Origin: an uncultured Clostridia bacterium
GTDB taxonomy: Bacteria; Bacillota; Clostridia; TANB77; CAG-508
Reading direction: 5' to 3'
NCBI GenBank assembly: GCA_944389225.1
Contig: CALXLP010000001.1
Location: 42,303-106,302, forward strand
DNA: 64,000 nucleotides
Shown here: positions 2,711 to 38,137 of the stretch, one piece after another
Layout of the letters: each line of letters starts with the position of its first letter
How positions within the stretch are numbered: position 1 is the first letter of the stretch
Notes under the pieces: generated by a model
What the model saw: the letters and a program-made list of their open reading frames with translations, nothing else
Databases searched by the model: none
Told to the model about the DNA's origin: nothing
Made by a program: the position numbers and the translations under genes

Positions 2711-2785
2711 TGGCTGGGCTGGCTAGATTCGAACTAGCGCATGCCAGAGTCAAAGTCTGGTGCCTTACCGCTTGGCTACAGCCCA
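2711..2785 (-). tRNA. tRNA-Gln (anticodon UUG), CCA encoded
   Basis: Hand-folded cloverleaf: acceptor TGGGCTG/CAGCCCA, D arm GCC..GGC, anticodon stem CCAGA/TCTGG with loop CTTTGAC, T arm GCTAG-TTCGAAT-CTAGC, discriminator G, then CCA. Confidence 0.9.
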
Positions 2786-2792
2786 ATATATA

Positions 2793-2870
2793 TGGGGTGG
2801 AAGATGGGACTCGAACCCACGGTCTCCAGTGCCACAAACTGGCGCGTTAACCAACTACGCTACATCCACC
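2793..2870 (-). tRNA. tRNA-His (anticodon GUG) with encoded G-1 and CCA
   Basis: Hand fold: an extra 5' G pairs with discriminator C. Anticodon stem CCAGT/ACTGG with loop TTGTGGC, T loop TTCGAGT, 3' CCA. Confidence 0.88.
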
Positions 2871-3039: not shown

Positions 3040-3837
3040 TTATTGTTGAACTGTACTCATACTACTTGGATCTATTCCATATTGTTGATATAACCATGAC
3101 ATATAATCAAATGGTGTTAATGTTTCAGGTAATCCATAATCAATTCCATTTGTTTCTACTCTAATAGATGTAATAACTGGTGGATTTACAGGTGTGCTTA
3201 CTTCTGTGTTTCCTGTTGTTTCTGCATCATCTGCTGCTTTTACTTCAACACCTTCTATTTGATGTACAATATCCATACCTTCTATTACTTTACCAAAAGA
3301 AGTATATTGTCCATTTAATCCTGTATTTTCTGCTGTCATAATAAAGAATTGTGAACTTCCAGAGTTATATGATTCTTCTGTTAATGATGAAGAATAACTG
3401 GTGTAATCAGATCTTGCCATTGCAACAACACCTTCTTCAAATTGTAATTTATTATCTACACCATTTGCTATAAATTCACCTTTTATTGTATATTCTGTAT
3501 CATCACCATCATCTCTTAAATCACTTGTGGTTGCTAATCCTGTTCCATCTCCATTTTTGTCTCCACCTTGAATCATAAAGTCTTTTACAATTCTGTGAAA
3601 TGTTAATCCATCATAAAATCCTCTATTGGCTAATGCTATGAAGTTTGCTACTGTTTCTGGAGCATATTCTGGATATAATTCAAATTTAATCGTTCCAAAA
3701 TTTTCAACTTCCATTGTTGCAACAGGTCTTGTAACCTCCATTGTTGCATTTCTATAATATCCATAACTGATAATTCCTATTAAAACAATTAAAATAATTA
3801 GAGCAACTATCCATATAATATTTTTAAATTTTCCCAT
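3040..3837 (-). CDS. membrane-anchored cyclophilin-type peptidyl-prolyl cis-trans isomerase
   Basis: N-terminal TM helix. Cyclophilin motifs FHRIVKDFMIQGGD and SQFFI. Confidence 0.85.
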   Translation of the reverse strand: MGKFKNIIWIVALIILIVLIGIISYGYYRNATMEVTRPVATMEVENFGTIKFELYPEYAPETVANFIALANRGFYDGLTFHRIVKDFMIQGGDKNGDGTGLATTSDLRDDGDDTEYTIKGEFIANGVDNKLQFEEGVVAMARSDYTSYSSSLTEESYNSGSSQFFIMTAENTGLNGQYTSFGKVIEGMDIVHQIEGVEVKAADDAETTGNTEVSTPVNPPVITSIRVETNGIDYGLPETLTPFDYMSWLYQQYGIDPSSMSTVQQ

Positions 3838-3871
3838 TTACTTCACATTTCCTTTCTTTTTTTATTTGCTT

Positions 3872-3902
3872 GGGACAATTTGGACCAGGTCCCAATTGTC
3901 CC
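3872..3902. repeat. palindromic derivative of the GGAC-rich REP-like repeat
   Basis: GGGACAATTTGGACC-A-GGTCCCAATTGTCCC, a 15-nt arm inverted with 1 mismatch. It lies between the disA stop and the PPIase start. The arm equals the first module of the 34-nt repeat. Confidence 0.85.
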
Positions 3903-3912
3903 AAATTTCCTC

Positions 3913-4986
3913 TTAAATCATATTGTCAAAAACAAATTGTTCTTGCATTCTTTTTAATGATTGTTTAATTGTTCTTGCTCTTACTTCTCCAATACCATCT
4001 ACTTCATCTAAGCTTTCAATATCTGCTGCTAATATATGTTGAAAAGATTTGAAAGAATCTACTAAGTTTTCAACAATATTGTTTGGCATTCTTGGCACTT
4101 TACTCAAAATTCGATATCCTTTTGGATAAACTGCAACTTCATCATAATTATCAAAATATTCATATCCTAATAATTTTGCAATAGAAGACTCTTTTAACAA
4201 TTCTTCATATTCTAAATCTTTTAACTCTTCTAATATTTTATCAGAAGATTTTTTCTTTTTAACCACATAATCTTTTATAATCAAACTTTCTTCTTTTTCA
4301 AGTCCCCCAATTAATTCATCTAGTTGCATTTTTACTAGTCTTCCGTCATCTCCAAGCTCATAAATCTGTCTTTGTATCTCTTCTACAATTCGCATAACCA
4401 TTTCTGCTCTTTGAATGGCAAGTACAACATTTTGTAATGTTACTATATCATTAAATTCATATTCATTCAATATATTTAATTTATTATCAAATACTTTTTT
4501 ATATTTTTCCAAAGTTTGTATTGCTTGATTTGCTTTATTTAATACAACATCTGTATCTTCCAAAACATATCGATCATTTCCTTTAAAAACTGTAATGATA
4601 TTTCTTCTTTGCGAGATACTAATGACTAATTCTCCTGTTTGTTTTGCTGTTCTTTCTGCTGTTCTATGTCTTGTTCCTGTTTCTGTTGTTTGGATTTCAT
4701 GTTCTGGAATTAATTGGGCATTGGCATATAAGATTTTTTTCATGTCACCACTTAATACAATGGCACCATCCATTTTGGCCAATTCATATAATTTTGATGA
4801 TGTATAGTCCTCATTAATAACAAAACCACCATCAACAATTTCTTTTATCACTTCATTATTGTCTGTAATTAATAATAATGCTCCTGTCTTTGCTCTTAAT
4901 ATATTTTCCAGACCATCTCTTATCGGTGTTCCTGGAGCTATTAATTTTAAAACAGATGTAATATTATCTTCTTTTACCTTTTTCAA
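3913..4986 (-). CDS. disA: DNA integrity scanning protein DisA (diadenylate cyclase)
   Basis: 357 aa. N-terminal DAC domain pattern (LIAPGTPIRDGLENILRAKTGALLLI, DGAIVL) and a C-terminal HhH. The conserved radA-disA pairing is present. Confidence 0.88.
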   Translation of the reverse strand: MKKVKEDNITSVLKLIAPGTPIRDGLENILRAKTGALLLITDNNEVIKEIVDGGFVINEDYTSSKLYELAKMDGAIVLSGDMKKILYANAQLIPEHEIQTTETGTRHRTAERTAKQTGELVISISQRRNIITVFKGNDRYVLEDTDVVLNKANQAIQTLEKYKKVFDNKLNILNEYEFNDIVTLQNVVLAIQRAEMVMRIVEEIQRQIYELGDDGRLVKMQLDELIGGLEKEESLIIKDYVVKKKKSSDKILEELKDLEYEELLKESSIAKLLGYEYFDNYDEVAVYPKGYRILSKVPRMPNNIVENLVDSFKSFQHILAADIESLDEVDGIGEVRARTIKQSLKRMQEQFVFDNMI

Positions 4987-5023
4987 AATTAATCTCCCTT
5001 CTCCCCTTAATTATGCAATCAAA

Positions 5024-6388
5024 CTATTTTAATCCAATCTTTTTCATTGCTTCATTAATATTGCTGACACCTATTATATCTAATTTATACTTTTCTTTCA
5101 AGTCTTTTTTGTTAGATTCCGGAATAATACAACTCTTAAATCCCAATTTTTCTGCTTCTTTCAACCTTTTGTCAATCAAATTAATTCTTCTTACTTCTCC
5201 GGTCAAACCAACTTCTCCAATAATCACCATATCTTTTGGAATTGGTACATTTTTGAAGCTTGAAACTACTGCCATCATCATTCCTAAATCAATAGATGGT
5301 TCATTGACTCTAATACCACCTACTAAATTTAAATAGATATCTTGACTTCCTAACATAATCCCTGCTCTTTTTTCTAGAACTGCAATTAATAAGGCAAGTC
5401 TATTATAATCTGTTCCATTTGCTGTTCTTTTGGGAAATCCAAAAATACTTTGTGTTGTTAAGGCTTGTAACTCAATTAAAATTGCTCTTGTTCCCTCTAT
5501 GCTAGACACAATACAAGAACCAGCTGGATTATCTTCTCTTTCTGAAATTAAAATATCTGATGGATTAGTGATTTCACACATTCCTTCTTCATTCATTTCA
5601 AACATACCAATTTCATTGGTTGAGCCAAATCTATTTTTTACACCTCTAAGGACTCTATATGAGAAATACCTTTCTCCTTCTAGATATAATACTGTATCTA
5701 CCATATGTTCTAAAACTCTTGGACCTGCTATATTTCCTTCTTTGGTTACATGTCCTATAATAATTGTTGTAATTGCTCTAGATTTACAAACTCTCATAAC
5801 TTGTGAAGTAATTTCTCTTACTTGGCTGACACTTCCAGCAGCTGCTGAAATTTCTTCTGAATACATGGTTTGAATAGAATCAATAATAACAAGTTTGGGA
5901 TTAATTTCTATAATTGCTTGATTGACAACATCAATATCTGTTTCTCCTAAAAATAGAATATCATCATTGTTTATCCCTAATCTATCAGCTCTCATTTTAA
6001 TTTGTTCTGCTGATTCTTCTCCAGAAACATATAAAACCTTTCCTTCACCTTTTACCTTATCACATATTTGTAAAATTAAAGTAGATTTTCCAATTCCAGG
6101 CTCTCCACCAAGTAACACAAGAGATCCTTTTACAAGACCTCCACCTAATACTCTATCTAATTCTCCAAAACCTGTTGAAGTTCTTAATGTTTCTTTTGCT
6201 TCATAAGAATTTAATTTTTGTGGCTTATTTTCACTTTTCGCTAAATCCTTGTGACTTCCCGCTTTTGTTTCCACTACTTTTTGTTCATAAAATGTATTCC
6301 AACTATTGCACGCTGGACATTTTCCAAGCCATTTACTAGATTCATTTCCACATTCACTACATACAAAAATCGTTTTACTTTTAGCCAT
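5024..6388 (-). CDS. radA: DNA repair protein RadA/Sms
   Basis: N-terminal zinc finger CSECG..CPAC, Walker A GGEPGIGKST, KNRFG motif and a Lon-like C-terminus. Confidence 0.95.
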   Translation of the reverse strand: MAKSKTIFVCSECGNESSKWLGKCPACNSWNTFYEQKVVETKAGSHKDLAKSENKPQKLNSYEAKETLRTSTGFGELDRVLGGGLVKGSLVLLGGEPGIGKSTLILQICDKVKGEGKVLYVSGEESAEQIKMRADRLGINNDDILFLGETDIDVVNQAIIEINPKLVIIDSIQTMYSEEISAAAGSVSQVREITSQVMRVCKSRAITTIIIGHVTKEGNIAGPRVLEHMVDTVLYLEGERYFSYRVLRGVKNRFGSTNEIGMFEMNEEGMCEITNPSDILISEREDNPAGSCIVSSIEGTRAILIELQALTTQSIFGFPKRTANGTDYNRLALLIAVLEKRAGIMLGSQDIYLNLVGGIRVNEPSIDLGMMMAVVSSFKNVPIPKDMVIIGEVGLTGEVRRINLIDKRLKEAEKLGFKSCIIPESNKKDLKEKYKLDIIGVSNINEAMKKIGLK

Positions 6389-6401
6389 TTTTCTCTCCTT
6401 T

Positions 6402-6445
6402 TGTCCATTTGGGTCTATTGGGGACGTTTCTTTTTGGACATTTTT
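6402..6445 (+). repeat. REP-like repeat copy (left flank of the RAYT gene)
   Basis: TGTCCATTTGGGTCTATTGGGGACGTTTCTTTTTGGACATTTT. It lies between the RAYT stop and the radA RBS and is inverted relative to the copy at 7387-7420. Confidence 0.85.
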
Positions 6446-6472
6446 ATTAATCTTTTTTTCAATCTCTCATTT

Positions 6473-7267
6473 CTATTTTTTAGAATTTTTAGTTTTCATA
6501 ACTCTTTCAATTACTTTTCTATTAACTCCTAATATTCTTGAAAGTTGTGCTTTTGATGTTCCTTTTATATTTTTTAATTGATATATTTTTTCATCTCTTA
6601 CTTTTTTATTATATGTACGAATTTCCCTTACATCTTTAATGTTTAGTACTTCCTGTATTTTTTTCTTTGTTTGTTCATCTGTTAATTTATCAATAATTTC
6701 ATATTCTACTTCTTCATTTATTGTTTTTTTCTCATAACTGTGAAAAATAATAAAATTTTCTATTGCTTCTTTTTGTGTTTGACCAAACATTGGTAAAATC
6801 CATTCTCTATTTATAATTTTTTCACCATAAATAAATTCAAGATAACTACTCCATTTATATTGTTCTATAGTTGAAATCCCAGATTTTACTGGATTTTGAT
6901 GGATATATCTACATAAACGGCACATATATTCTTTGGTTTCAACATTTTTACTTAAAAATCTATTTTGAAATAAATGACCTTCTTTATCATACTTTTTTGA
7001 AAAATAACTTGAATATGATATTGCTATACTTTGCATTATTTTAGAAATTTGGTTATTTTTATCATAAATAACTAAATGTACATGATTGGTCATTAAACAA
7101 TATGCATATATTTTATATTGATATTTTTCCTTTGTCATTTTCATTGTTTTTAGAAATTTTTTATAATCTTGTTCATCATAAAATATATCTTGCCTATCAT
7201 TTCCTCTTAAAATAATATGATATACTTTTGTATTACTAATTTTTCTTGCTACACGGGGCATATTCAT
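6473..7267 (-). CDS. REP-associated tyrosine transposase (RAYT) / IS200-like Y1 HUH transposase with C-terminal HTH
   Basis: HUH motif in LMTNHVHLVI and a catalytic Tyr motif in CRYIHQNPVK. The spacing and N-terminal YHIILRGN block are typical of PF01797-type proteins. The C-terminal AQLSRILGVNRKVIERV looks like an HTH. The gene is flanked by inverted repeat copies. Confidence 0.8.
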   Translation of the reverse strand: MNMPRVARKISNTKVYHIILRGNDRQDIFYDEQDYKKFLKTMKMTKEKYQYKIYAYCLMTNHVHLVIYDKNNQISKIMQSIAISYSSYFSKKYDKEGHLFQNRFLSKNVETKEYMCRLCRYIHQNPVKSGISTIEQYKWSSYLEFIYGEKIINREWILPMFGQTQKEAIENFIIFHSYEKKTINEEVEYEIIDKLTDEQTKKKIQEVLNIKDVREIRTYNKKVRDEKIYQLKNIKGTSKAQLSRILGVNRKVIERVMKTKNSKK

Positions 7268-7386
7268 CTCTCCTTACATTATTTTTATGCCCCTAAAACA
7301 AAAAAAGTATAGCATATTTCTATATTTTTTGCCATACTTTTCTTCTAATTTTTAAATAGCTATTCTAAAAACATTTCAATTTAAAC

Positions 7387-7420
7387 AAAATGTCCAAAAA
7401 GAAACGTCCCCAATTGTCCC
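7387..7420 (-). repeat. REP-like repeat copy (right flank of the RAYT gene)
   Basis: AAAATGTCCAAAAAGAAACGTCCCCAATTGTCCC, about 120 nt upstream of the RAYT start. Confidence 0.9.
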
Positions 7421-7424
7421 TTTT

Positions 7425-7739
7425 TTATACTTCTGTTTTCTTTTTTCCAAATGTAATTTCTTGGAATAAGAAATCATGTACTTTCTCCCATGTAACTTCT
7501 TGATGTAAAAATTCATTTATTTCATTTTCTACTTTTTGTTGATATGGAGTTAATTCTACTTTTATTTCTTTGTTCCAATCAATTTCTTGGAACCAGAAGT
7601 TTTTAAATTTTGACCAGAATCCTTGTTTTACTGGTAAATTTTTTCCTTTAGAAGCTTGTGCTTGTCCATTATTATTACCATTTTCATTATTAAATTCTAC
7701 TCCACCAAATACATTATTTTCTTCTCTTATATCTGCCAT
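7425..7739 (-). CDS. hypothetical protein (104 aa, N/G/Q-rich N-terminus, W/F-rich C-terminus)
   Basis: ORF with RBS AGGAGG upstream. No motif recognised. Confidence 0.45.
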   Translation of the reverse strand: MADIREENNVFGGVEFNNENGNNNGQAQASKGKNLPVKQGFWSKFKNFWFQEIDWNKEIKVELTPYQQKVENEINEFLHQEVTWEKVHDFLFQEITFGKKKTEV

Positions 7740-7923
7740 TTAATTTCCTCCTTTGTAGCTTATTATACCTTACTATATTATTTATACTATATCTTTTGTC
7801 ATTTATCAATACCTTTTCACTTCTTTTTTTATTAAATATTAATGACAAAATGATTACATTTTTGTTACATCTTTCCATTTCTAGAATTTTAAGGAATTTT
7901 TCAAAATCATCCTATTTATAAAT

Positions 7924-9846: not shown

Positions 9847-10897
<1,051 letters not shown>

Positions 10898-10968
10898 TTA
10901 CAATTATATTACAATGTTGTTATTTTTTCAACCATTTTTTGTAAAAAAGATATTCTATTTACTTAATT

Positions 10969-12083: not shown

Positions 12084-12116
12084 AAAATGTCCAAACAGAA
12101 ACGTCCCAAATTGTCC
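12084..12116 (-). repeat. REP-like repeat copy
   Basis: AAAATGTCCAAACAGAAACGTCCCAAATTGTCC, between the slt stop and the signal peptidase start. Confidence 0.85.
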
Positions 12117-12128
12117 TAAATTGTATCA

Positions 12129-17201: not shown

Positions 17202-17343
17202 GGGACAATTGGGGACGTTTCTGTTTGGACATTTTTGATATATTTACAATAAATTTGTTTCTAATAAAGACATATAAAATAAAAAAATTATAGTTAACAG
17301 TTTTTACATAAAATGTCCAAACAGAAACGTCCCCAATTGTCCC
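17202..17343. mobile_element. REP doublet (REPIN/MITE-like): two 34-nt repeat copies as perfect terminal inverted repeats
   Basis: 17202-17235 GGGACAATTGGGGACGTTTCTGTTTGGACATTTT is the exact reverse complement of 17310-17343. The spacer between them is 74 nt and AT-rich. The arm orientation matches that of the arms around the RAYT gene. Confidence 0.9.
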
Positions 17344-25023: not shown

Positions 25024-25126
25024 CTATAGTCTCCTCCTTATTTTGCAAAAGTTTAATTAAAAACAATTTTTCCTAGTTCTGTCCCTTTCGTTCCATTCTG
25101 AAACGATTTGGCACGTCCCTAATGTT

Positions 25127-37840: not shown

Positions 37841-38104
37841 ATGGAAGAAGTAAAGATTGGACGAGTTTATCGTCACTTTAAAGGAAATTATTACTTTGTT
37901 GAAAATGTGGCATATAACTCGGAAACAAAAGAAAGAATGGTTATTTATAAAAATTTATACCCTAGAGATGATGGACGCTCCATATGGGTTAGACCTGAGA
38001 AAATGTTCTTAGAAGAAATTCCAGAAAGGCCAGACAATATCACTGGTCAAAAAACACGATTTGCGTTAGTAACAGATTTAGAAATAGATTATACTAAAAA
38101 ATAA
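37841..38104 (+). CDS. DUF1653-family protein
   Basis: YRHFKGNYY...VIYKNLY pattern. ATG at 37841 with an AAAGGAG RBS. Confidence 0.65.
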   Translation: MEEVKIGRVYRHFKGNYYFVENVAYNSETKERMVIYKNLYPRDDGRSIWVRPEKMFLEEIPERPDNITGQKTRFALVTDLEIDYTKK

Positions 38105-38137
38105 AATGTCCAAAAAGAAACGTCCCAAATGGACATT
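38103..38137 (-). repeat. REP-like repeat copy (variant with flipped terminal module)
   Basis: AAAATGTCCAAAAAGAAACGTCCCAAATGGACATT. It overlaps the DUF1653 stop codon by 2 nt and ends 7 nt before the serS RBS. Confidence 0.85.

Follow-up and report, generated by a model that had tools for sequence, protein, structure and literature searches.

We analyzed a tyrosine transposase gene of the HUH/Y1 type and the dispersed repeats around it in a 64,000-nt stretch of DNA, hereafter the window, from an uncultured Clostridia bacterium of CAG-508 (contig CALXLP010000001.1, assembly GCA_944389225.1). The G+C content of the window is 28.6%. The gene lies between two inverted copies of a short repeat, and further copies of this repeat stand between genes elsewhere in the window. 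We are highly confident that the encoded protein is a TIRYT-type member of the RAYT family. The system as a whole, including mobilization by the enzyme, is probably that of a domesticated HUH/Y1 transposase acting on single-stranded DNA (ssDNA), which by analogy with related enzymes would mobilize the dispersed repeats. The architecture is already in the literature, and the locus is a new Gram-positive example of it in uncultured gut Clostridia. Loci from other genomes set beside the window are labeled L001-L111 and L112-L118. Twelve lineages have the gene in syntenic position, namely the window, L098, L095, L033, L110, and L112-L118.

The open reading frame (ORF) encodes a 264-aa product (Table 1). 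Its true start is likely the ATG at 7261 (MPR...); orthologs all begin with MPR. The N-terminal part of the product, from about residue 15 to 145, matched the Pfam family Y1_Tnp (PF01797) with an E value of 5e-17 and a score of 62.5 bits (cutoff 23). Across 42 aligned homologs, the HUH motif N61-H62-V63-H64 and the motif Y121-I-H-Q-N-P were invariant, as were H62, H64, Y121, N125, P126, and W139-S140-S141 individually. An earlier note on this DNA, made from the sequence alone, had read a 264-aa product with the HUH and catalytic tyrosine motifs of Y1 transposases and had proposed the PF01797 search. Both motifs hold up, and a misalignment of the motifs with this family is not the case. The NCBIfam model REP_Tyr_transpos (NF047646) scored 73.9 bits, whereas the IS200 transposase model scored 25.9 bits against a cutoff of 55. 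A profile of the 42 homologs gave a single match in the PDB, E. coli TnpA_REP (4er8, E value 0.047), in which HVHLI corresponds to HMHCI and YIHQNPVK to YIYINPVK. A single-sequence phmmer search of the PDB gave one spurious Nesprin match only; 4er8 was reached by the profile. The AlphaFold model had a mean predicted local distance difference test score (pLDDT) of 91. Its best Foldseek match was also 4er8 (E value 5e-6, 144 aligned columns, TM score 0.70 on the target). Next came the TnpA proteins of IS200, IS608, and ISDra2; 4er8, 2f4f, 2vjv, and 2xqc all had E values of 1e-4 or lower. By predicted structure and profile, the window protein has a TnpA-like fold and is nearer to TnpA_REP than to the TnpA of IS200/IS605 elements. 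The earlier note's choice of a RAYT-type Y1 gene over an IS200 insertion sequence (IS) agrees with the two model scores and with 4er8 as best match.

The alignment shows a conserved helical domain at residues ~150-264, with the end ...IKGTSKxQIARVLGINRKIIERAMK, and this domain is confidently helical in the AlphaFold model. The Pfam matches within it were sub-threshold, with HTH_23 in 8, Sigma70_r4_2 in 5, and HTH_28 in 3 of 29 homologs. A fold search with the domain gave nothing below an E value of 0.3, and the best compact superpositions were on DnaA domain IV at E ~1. Its profile gave no significant match to PDB sequences. The earlier note had placed a helix-turn-helix (HTH) at the C-terminus. 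The conserved helical C-terminal domain stands, but its HTH nature, suggested by the sub-threshold Pfam matches and by DnaA domain IV, is tentative because the profile and fold searches were without a significant match. The two-domain architecture is widespread. Clustering at 50% gave 829 clusters with E <= 1e-30, and almost every one of the top 150 is full-length at 245-275 aa.

The transposase gene occurs once within the window. The order mreB, mtaB, small ORF, transposase gene, radA, disA, and peptidyl-prolyl isomerase (PPIase) gene is kept in L112-L118, whose seven orthologs share 56-64% protein identity and all occupy the same slot. L033 and L110 (63% and 62% protein identity, respectively) gave long collinear alignments with window positions 3641-7883 at ~75% nucleotide identity. 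The transposase ORF is intact in all 12 lineages, and the ratio of nonsynonymous to synonymous substitution rates (dN/dS) was 0.22-0.26 for the three closest comparisons. Homologs were present in 16 of 72,556 plasmid records and in one phage record, all distant at below 43% identity, and no close relative of the transposase was found on these plasmid records or on the phage records. There was no tnpB beside the transposase gene at the loci examined. A single syntenic, vertically inherited, intact copy without close plasmid or phage relatives and without tnpB shows the hallmarks that part RAYTs from IS200 elements (PMC5581495). Judged by gene order, an ancestor of the low-GC gut Clostridia clade apparently gained one copy in the interval that separates the small ORF's stop codon from the radA start, and inheritance has been vertical since. 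The earlier note had described a single gene and suggested counting paralogs; the window has one copy, in a slot shared by 12 lineages.

The 28-nt core of the repeat, ATTGGGGACGTTTCTTTTTGGACATTTT, was found with at most two mismatches at six sites (6417+, 7387-, 12084-, 17208+, 17310-, and 38103-). The core gave 0 matches in 100 dinucleotide-preserving shuffles, and an nhmmer profile search of the window returned no further full units. With two palindromic derivatives, the window has 8 copies in 64 kb. On the ORF map, each of the eight is intergenic, and the sequence set is ~85% coding. The copies that flank the gene are inverted, with their ...GGACATTTT ends pointing inward, and the between-repeat distance is 1019 nt. 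The left copy lies past the transposase stop codon and ahead of the radA ribosome-binding site, and only 4 nt separate the head of the right copy from the small ORF's stop codon. The copy at 38103 shares 2 nt with the stop codon of a genuine DUF1653 gene, and 18 nt lie between its end and the start of serS; this position is kept in L015 and L055. The earlier note is borne out in the orientation and coordinates of the flanking copies (6402-6445 and 7387-7420) and in its count of eight copies, intergenic save for the 2-nt stop codon overlap.

The head of the unit reads GGGACA in four window units and TGTCCA in two, and both forms occur among 128 repeat copies aligned from L001-L111 and the window. 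The terminal module does flip, as the earlier note had proposed. The window unit has no GTAG tag, and a GGGACA-headed unit folded as ssDNA at −0.4 kcal/mol (z 0.46), without a hairpin. The inverted doublet at 17202-17343 is REPIN-like and occupies its entire intergenic region. As ssDNA it folded into a 37-bp stem with −44.3 kcal/mol and z −11.6. The two 31-nt palindromes share with the unit only its 15-nt head, GGGACAATTGGGAC. They have the form GGGACAATT(T)GG(G)ACC-A-GGTCCCAATTGTCCC and fold at −13 and −18 kcal/mol as DNA. Full repeat copies stand at the position equivalent to 3872-3902 in L114 and L116. Rfam gave no match at the window repeats. A promoter and terminator scan of 6300-7500 found no intrinsic terminators, and the palindromes are without following T runs, which ruled out the repeats as intrinsic terminators. 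A decayed relic (TGTCCC...GAAACG) lies at window ~25050-25124, where L044 has an intact doublet (7289-7420).

Table 1. Transposase gene, repeat copies, and neighboring features in the window
Feature	Position	Strand	Description
TIRYT/RAYT-type Y1 (HUH) tyrosine transposase gene	6473..7267	-	ORF map, Pfam, NCBIfam, PDB profile, Foldseek
Left flanking repeat	6402..6445	+	TGTCCA head, 10-nt insert, core ATTGGGGACGTTTCTTTTTGGACATTTT, tail toward gene
Right flanking repeat	7387..7420	-	Full 34-nt unit GGGACAATTGGGGACGTTTCTTTTTGGACATTTT, tail toward gene
Single dispersed unit	12084..12117	-	Head 11 nt past stop codon of SLT-domain gene
Inverted tail-to-tail doublet	17202..17343	.	17202-17235 (+) and 17310-17343 (-), 74-nt spacer
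Single unit, ATGTCC head	38103..38136	-	Fills gap from DUF1653 stop to serS ribosome-binding site exactly
Head-to-head palindromic derivative	3872..3902	.	GGGACAATTTGGACC-A-GGTCCCAATTGTCCC, between disA and PPIase gene
Perfect 15+1+15 palindromic derivative	63688..63718	.	5' leader of typA/bipA gene
Conserved small ORF	7425-7739	-	99-115 aa, without Pfam family, always between mtaB and transposase cassette
Promoter-like palindrome in cassette, 5' of transposase	7300..7345	-	GTATrGCA-N18-TGCTATACT, T run, then AGGGGCA 7289-7295

Inverted flanking repeats of the same geometry were found in all 12 lineages, with a sequence that varies with the lineage. In most sister lineages the repeat is longer (~46-55 nt) and has the layout (A)ATGTCC-NNTT-GGGGAC[G/A]-N8-9-[6-nt arm]-T3-4-[complementary arm]-N3-4-GGGACAC-ATCT. 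It thus contains a 6-bp hairpin followed by GGGGACAC-ATCT, and the hairpin is bordered by GGGAC modules, not by a GTAG tag. The complementary arms are TGGACA/TGTCCA, CCGACA/TGTCGG (L116), TGCTCC/GGAGCA (L114), and GTTTCA/TGAAAC (an L118 variant). In a 13-sequence alignment, 89.7% of cells pair, compared with 25-46% for slid partners. Changes on both sides occurred in five of six pairs, and the covariation score was reached by none of 500 shuffles. The earlier note's view that single copies have little or no hairpin potential is accordingly right for the GGGACA-headed window unit but not for the repeat of the sister lineages. The lineage-specific variant recurs nearby, with 5 copies per 20 kb in L114, 4 in L112, and 3 each in L116 and L118 (Hamming scan, counts per ~20 kb). 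In the L118 flanking repeat, GGAC/GTCC modules ~10 bp apart can be read directly. The window unit and the units of L098, L095, and L113 end right after the 5' arm. Because the window unit stops at this point of the sister-lineage hairpin, the missing hairpin is read as a derived truncation. By this alignment, the window 34-mer is a truncated derivative, and in its lineage only inverted doublets are predicted to fold.

The repeat is dispersed well beyond the window. Exact matches to GGGACGTTTCTKTTTGGACA occurred at no fewer than 111 loci in more than 30 species of uncultured Clostridia metagenome-assembled genomes (MAGs) from animal guts; this search covered one genome per species, and the copies listed are lower bounds. 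Many +/− pairs 40-250 nt apart were seen among the matches listed, and one MAG had at least 19 exact 20-mers. Because the head (A)TGTCCA is the reverse complement of the tail, the unit has 8-9 bp inverted termini. Units are arranged as singles, tandem arrays, tail-to-tail pairs with a 4-nt loop, doublets with longer spacers, and palindromes. Direct tandem arrays are present in L101 (6139-6304, 34-nt period, three units and then an inverted one) and L027 (5344-5461, 42-nt period). A literature search with the repeat sequence returned unrelated primer matches only.

Placement relative to genes is precise. For single units with the head toward a gene end (n = 35), the distance to the stop codon was at most 1 nt in 16 and at most 10 nt in 27. 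For single units facing a gene start (n = 39), the start codon was 6-29 nt away in 18. Of the unit ends lying no more than 10 nt from a gene, 30 were heads and 6 were tails, and tails showed no such clustering. Orientation relative to transcription was evenly split, 62 versus 59, and the repeat is therefore not a one-strand RNA element; that candidate was rejected. Many close homologs of the transposase (P0001, P0003, P0007, and others) stand alone on contigs of ~0.9-1.0 kb, about the distance between the flanking repeats. This suggests that assemblies break at the flanking repeats in many samples.

Comparisons between relatives point to movement of the repeats. The doublet at 17202-17343 is absent at the orthologous site of L090 (~90% identity), and L044 has it with a different spacer. 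Downstream of radA, an element is present in L033 and L110 but missing from the window and L098, and other filled and empty orthologous site pairs were also found. Two copies of a 290-bp element with the 34-nt repeat at its boundaries lie on a single contig of a related MAG (L045, 6700-6987; L079, 3488-3778). They share 95.7% identity in their interiors, lie in unrelated flanking sequence, and show no target duplication. Another species has a third copy (87%; L053, 6844-7123). The element is a foldback, MITE-like structure (after miniature inverted-repeat transposable elements) that folds as one long hairpin with −124 kcal/mol and z −19; its interior consists of a 15-bp stem and an inner stem. 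Rfam returned sub-threshold junk matches only for this element, and a known RNA family was rejected. The lack of target duplication fits a Y1 mechanism and speaks against a DDE transposase. Duplication of a doublet as a unit was thus observed in a related MAG, not in the window's own genome.

In the mechanism that we propose, the two terminal inverted repeats of the gene would be the reference copies of a family of short non-autonomous intergenic elements. The enzyme would recognize one repeat strand when it is single-stranded, for example at a replication fork, by analogy with TnpA_REP and IS608 TnpA. Cleavage and rejoining would proceed via a 5'-phosphotyrosine on Y121 with a metal site at H62/H64, and repeat-bounded segments could be excised, copied, or inserted without target duplication. 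In the sister lineages, the recognition structure would be the 6-bp hairpin between two GGGAC modules. In the window lineage, this hairpin would have been lost, and the foldable and probably mobilizable form would be the inverted doublet. The HTH domain plausibly adds duplex recognition of GGAC modules or of the gene's own promoter palindrome. The analogy is based on TnpA_REP bound to the hairpin of a repetitive extragenic palindromic (REP) sequence (4er8), as described in PMC8266576. From it we infer the catalysis, the strand choice, the moving form, and the role of the HTH.

Several observations weigh against a TIRYT-type enzyme that moves these repeats. The REP_Tyr_transpos score is just below the 80-bit equivalog cutoff, and the window repeats read GGGGACGT, which differs from the published TIRtron motif GGGGWSAS at the last two positions. 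The window units are without the hairpin normally needed by Y1 enzymes and may therefore be inert relics. L115 and L117 have only the two flanking copies in ~20 kb. The filled and empty pairs come from genomes too diverged to give exact junctions or the target. Several copies also keep their place between species whose coding identity is only 75-79% (at 38103 in comparison with L055, and downstream of disA), which points to old, possibly fixed functional sites and not to active movement.

In the serious alternative, the repeats are mainly host-functional sites that no longer move, either binding sites for the HTH domain or another DNA-binding protein or RNA elements at gene boundaries (weak terminators or stabilizers of 3' ends or 5' leaders), and the Y1 protein was co-opted as a binding or processing factor in the radA-disA operon. 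The placement of heads exactly at stop codons or just outside ribosome-binding sites (with tails unclustered), orthologous copies near consensus beside flanking coding DNA of only 75-79% identity, GGAC/GTCC modules ~10 bp apart in the L118 repeat, and a conserved HTH-like C-terminal domain all suit such sites. So does the gene's setting, which in every lineage is between the small ORF and radA, the ATG of radA abutting the repeat. However, the 62:59 split in orientation, the lack of an Rfam family at the repeats, the presence/absence differences, and the duplication of a repeat-bounded element at unrelated sites run against this explanation. The variety of tandem, doublet, and palindromic arrangements is unlike operators, and the invariant HUH and tyrosine residues under purifying selection are as expected if catalysis matters. 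We regard it as improbable overall. Co-option after dispersal is compatible with a repeat-mobilizing transposase as well.

The repeats could also be miniature elements of another, DDE-type transposon, with the Y1 association coincidental or secondary. The 8-9 bp inverted termini of the unit (AAATGTCCA...TGGACATTT) and the MITE-like 290-bp element would suit this origin. No target-site duplication is visible at the three 290-bp copies, however, the variant of the repeat goes with the lineage of the Y1 gene, which it flanks in every case, and no other transposase was found beside the repeats at the loci examined, which makes this origin very unlikely. An ordinary autonomous IS200/IS605-family IS that lies beside radA by chance is effectively refuted. 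The Y1_Tnp domain is common to IS200, and the TnpA proteins of IS200, IS608, and ISDra2 were significant in Foldseek. Nevertheless, the IS200 model stayed well below its cutoff, and the single window copy occupies an identical slot in 12 lineages down to 56% identity. The long terminal inverted repeats are not the distinct subterminal hairpins of left and right ends, there is no adjacent tnpB and no close plasmid or phage copy, and the protein has an extra C-terminal domain of 120 aa. The earlier note had named an ordinary IS as an outcome that would overturn its reading; the single copy, the IS200 model score, and the terminal inverted repeats say otherwise. Neither of the other two outcomes that it gave as refuting, a repeat that is not over-represented and motifs out of line with PF01797, was encountered.

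Within the preferred reading of a repeat-mobilizing TIRYT-type transposase, a more far-reaching version can be formulated. The locus would then represent the first documented partnership of the REPIN-RAYT kind in Firmicutes, and also the first within the HTH-bearing TIRYT subclass, previously taken to lack repeat populations. The enzyme would be fixed clade-wide in a radA-disA repair operon and would maintain GGAC-module elements co-opted as gene-boundary punctuation. A lineage that lost the hairpin but kept an abundant family would then mean that recognition shifted from the single-stranded hairpin to double-stranded DNA or the doublet via the HTH. We consider this version doubtful.

Further features of the locus concern its expression and surroundings. 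A block of AAAGTATAGCAA-N17-18-TGCTATACTTTTT followed by AGGGGCA (7289-7345) is near-invariant in six aligned lineages (window, L095, L033, L112, L113, and L114), while neighboring intergenic DNA is variable. By the promoter scan, this palindrome block is probably the transposase gene promoter, with an extended −10 element. Its half-sites, GTATAGCA/TGCTATAC, are a candidate operator, possibly for the protein's own HTH domain. In most sister lineages (L112-L118, ~10,790-10,900), the radA ATG abuts the outer end of the repeat (...GGACATGGCGAAAAG) without a Shine-Dalgarno sequence, and the other repeat directly adjoins the stop codon of the small ORF upstream (TAATGTCC). In the window, the stretch from the repeat to the radA ATG contains AGGAGAG (6389-6401). 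Two tRNA genes lie past the PPIase gene in the window (2714-2869), and phage-type integrase or serine recombinase genes occupy the corresponding place in L113 (14754-17293), L116 (15016-16944), and L118 (14832-16010). The tRNA site beyond the PPIase gene is probably a tRNA-linked integration hot spot. L093 (Chicken_20_mag_115) has a second, distant Y1 paralog at 997-1446, with 30% identity to the window protein.

RAYT-like genes with long terminal inverted repeats in place of GTAG REPs were described as TIRtrons/TIRYTs by Di Nocera et al. (2013); many TIRtron repeats share GGGGWSAS, and some moderately abundant families occur as dimers or clusters (PMC3733652). In Quentin et al. (2018), TIRYTs are equated with TnpA_Y1 subclass 2.1, the second largest subclass, whose C-terminal HTH is similar to Bac_DnaA_C, HTH_23, or HTH_28, and no REP-like sequences were found near subclass 2.1 genes (PMC6006769). 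RAYT group 1 was reported from Clostridia by Bertels et al. (2017), with flanking 16-mers in only ~12 copies (PMC5581495). In a later paper, RAYT groups 1, 4, and 5 count as co-opted single-copy genes, and the published view is that these groups have no large repeat populations. In the literature consulted on RAYTs and TIRYTs, we found no report on the biochemistry of TIRYT/subclass 2.1 proteins. We file the gene as TIRYT-type because the orthologous repeats carry GGGGACAC or GGGGACAG, both of which fit GGGGWSAS; the window repeat reads GGGGACGT. This assignment is based on likeness to the published descriptions of the repeats and of the HTH architecture.

The link of TIRYT/subclass 2.1 genes to repeat families is disputed, with some moderately abundant families in Di Nocera et al. 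and no REP-like repeats in Quentin et al. The clade examined here is a natural comparative series, with one syntenic gene in dozens of species, repeats that range from hairpin-bearing to hairpin-less, and two to many copies per 20 kb. This series makes it testable which part of the repeat the enzyme reads, what the HTH does, and whether repeat populations persist vertically outside Proteobacteria. Its value lies in the series with and without hairpins, in the dispersed family around an HTH-bearing TIRYT, and in the unexplained placement of units exactly at gene boundaries. In practical terms, the repeats probably break short-read assemblies of gut Clostridia and leave many homologs alone on ~1 kb contigs.

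Among known systems, the locus is most like TIRtrons/TIRYTs. It shares with them a RAYT-like Y1 gene between long terminal inverted repeats (34-44 nt in the window and 46-55 nt in orthologs), repeats dispersed as singles, dimers, and clusters, and a long protein with a C-terminal HTH-like domain. It differs in its host, an uncultured low-GC Clostridia clade, and in a dense repeat family, ~1 per 8-10 kb in the window, where Quentin et al. saw no REP-like repeats. It also differs in the covarying hairpin of the sister lineages, lost in the window lineage, and in the GGGGACGT of the window repeat. With IS200/IS605 elements (IS608, ISDra2 TnpA) it shares the Y1 HUH fold and the catalytic motifs, and the 290-bp element is consistent with transposition of their kind, without target duplication. 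The locus is not an IS, however: its only copy is syntenic and ends in terminal inverted repeats, tnpB is missing, the protein has an extra domain, and the IS200 model score is below cutoff.

In the PDB, the protein of the E. coli REPtron (TnpA_REP = RayT/YafM, 4er8) gives the closest structural match and the only match to the sequence profile. Both systems have a single-copy gene, inverted cognate flanks, and intergenic mosaic repeats of the BIME type, and an ssDNA mechanism would be expected here by analogy. Unlike the REPtron, the window genome has a non-palindromic unit without a GTAG tag, and its protein is 100 aa longer, has the HTH domain, and shares ~16% identity in the structural alignment. 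The earlier note had called the arrangement classic REP/RAYT architecture. The RAYT-type gene between inverted dispersed repeats stands, but GTAG palindromes are absent, and the match is to TIRtrons/TIRYTs. A classic REP is a short imperfect palindrome with an unpaired GTAG or CGTC tag, and the window unit is not of this kind. The REPIN-RAYT systems of Pseudomonas, Enterobacteria, and Neisseria (groups 2 and 3) are proteobacterial and use GTAG REPs, which sets them apart. They nevertheless share with this locus a vertical single-copy RAYT, turnover between related genomes, inverted doublets with long hairpins, and, in a related genome, a doublet duplicated as a unit. Two close inverted units that form one hairpin define a REPIN, and the window has exactly this arrangement at 17202-17343.

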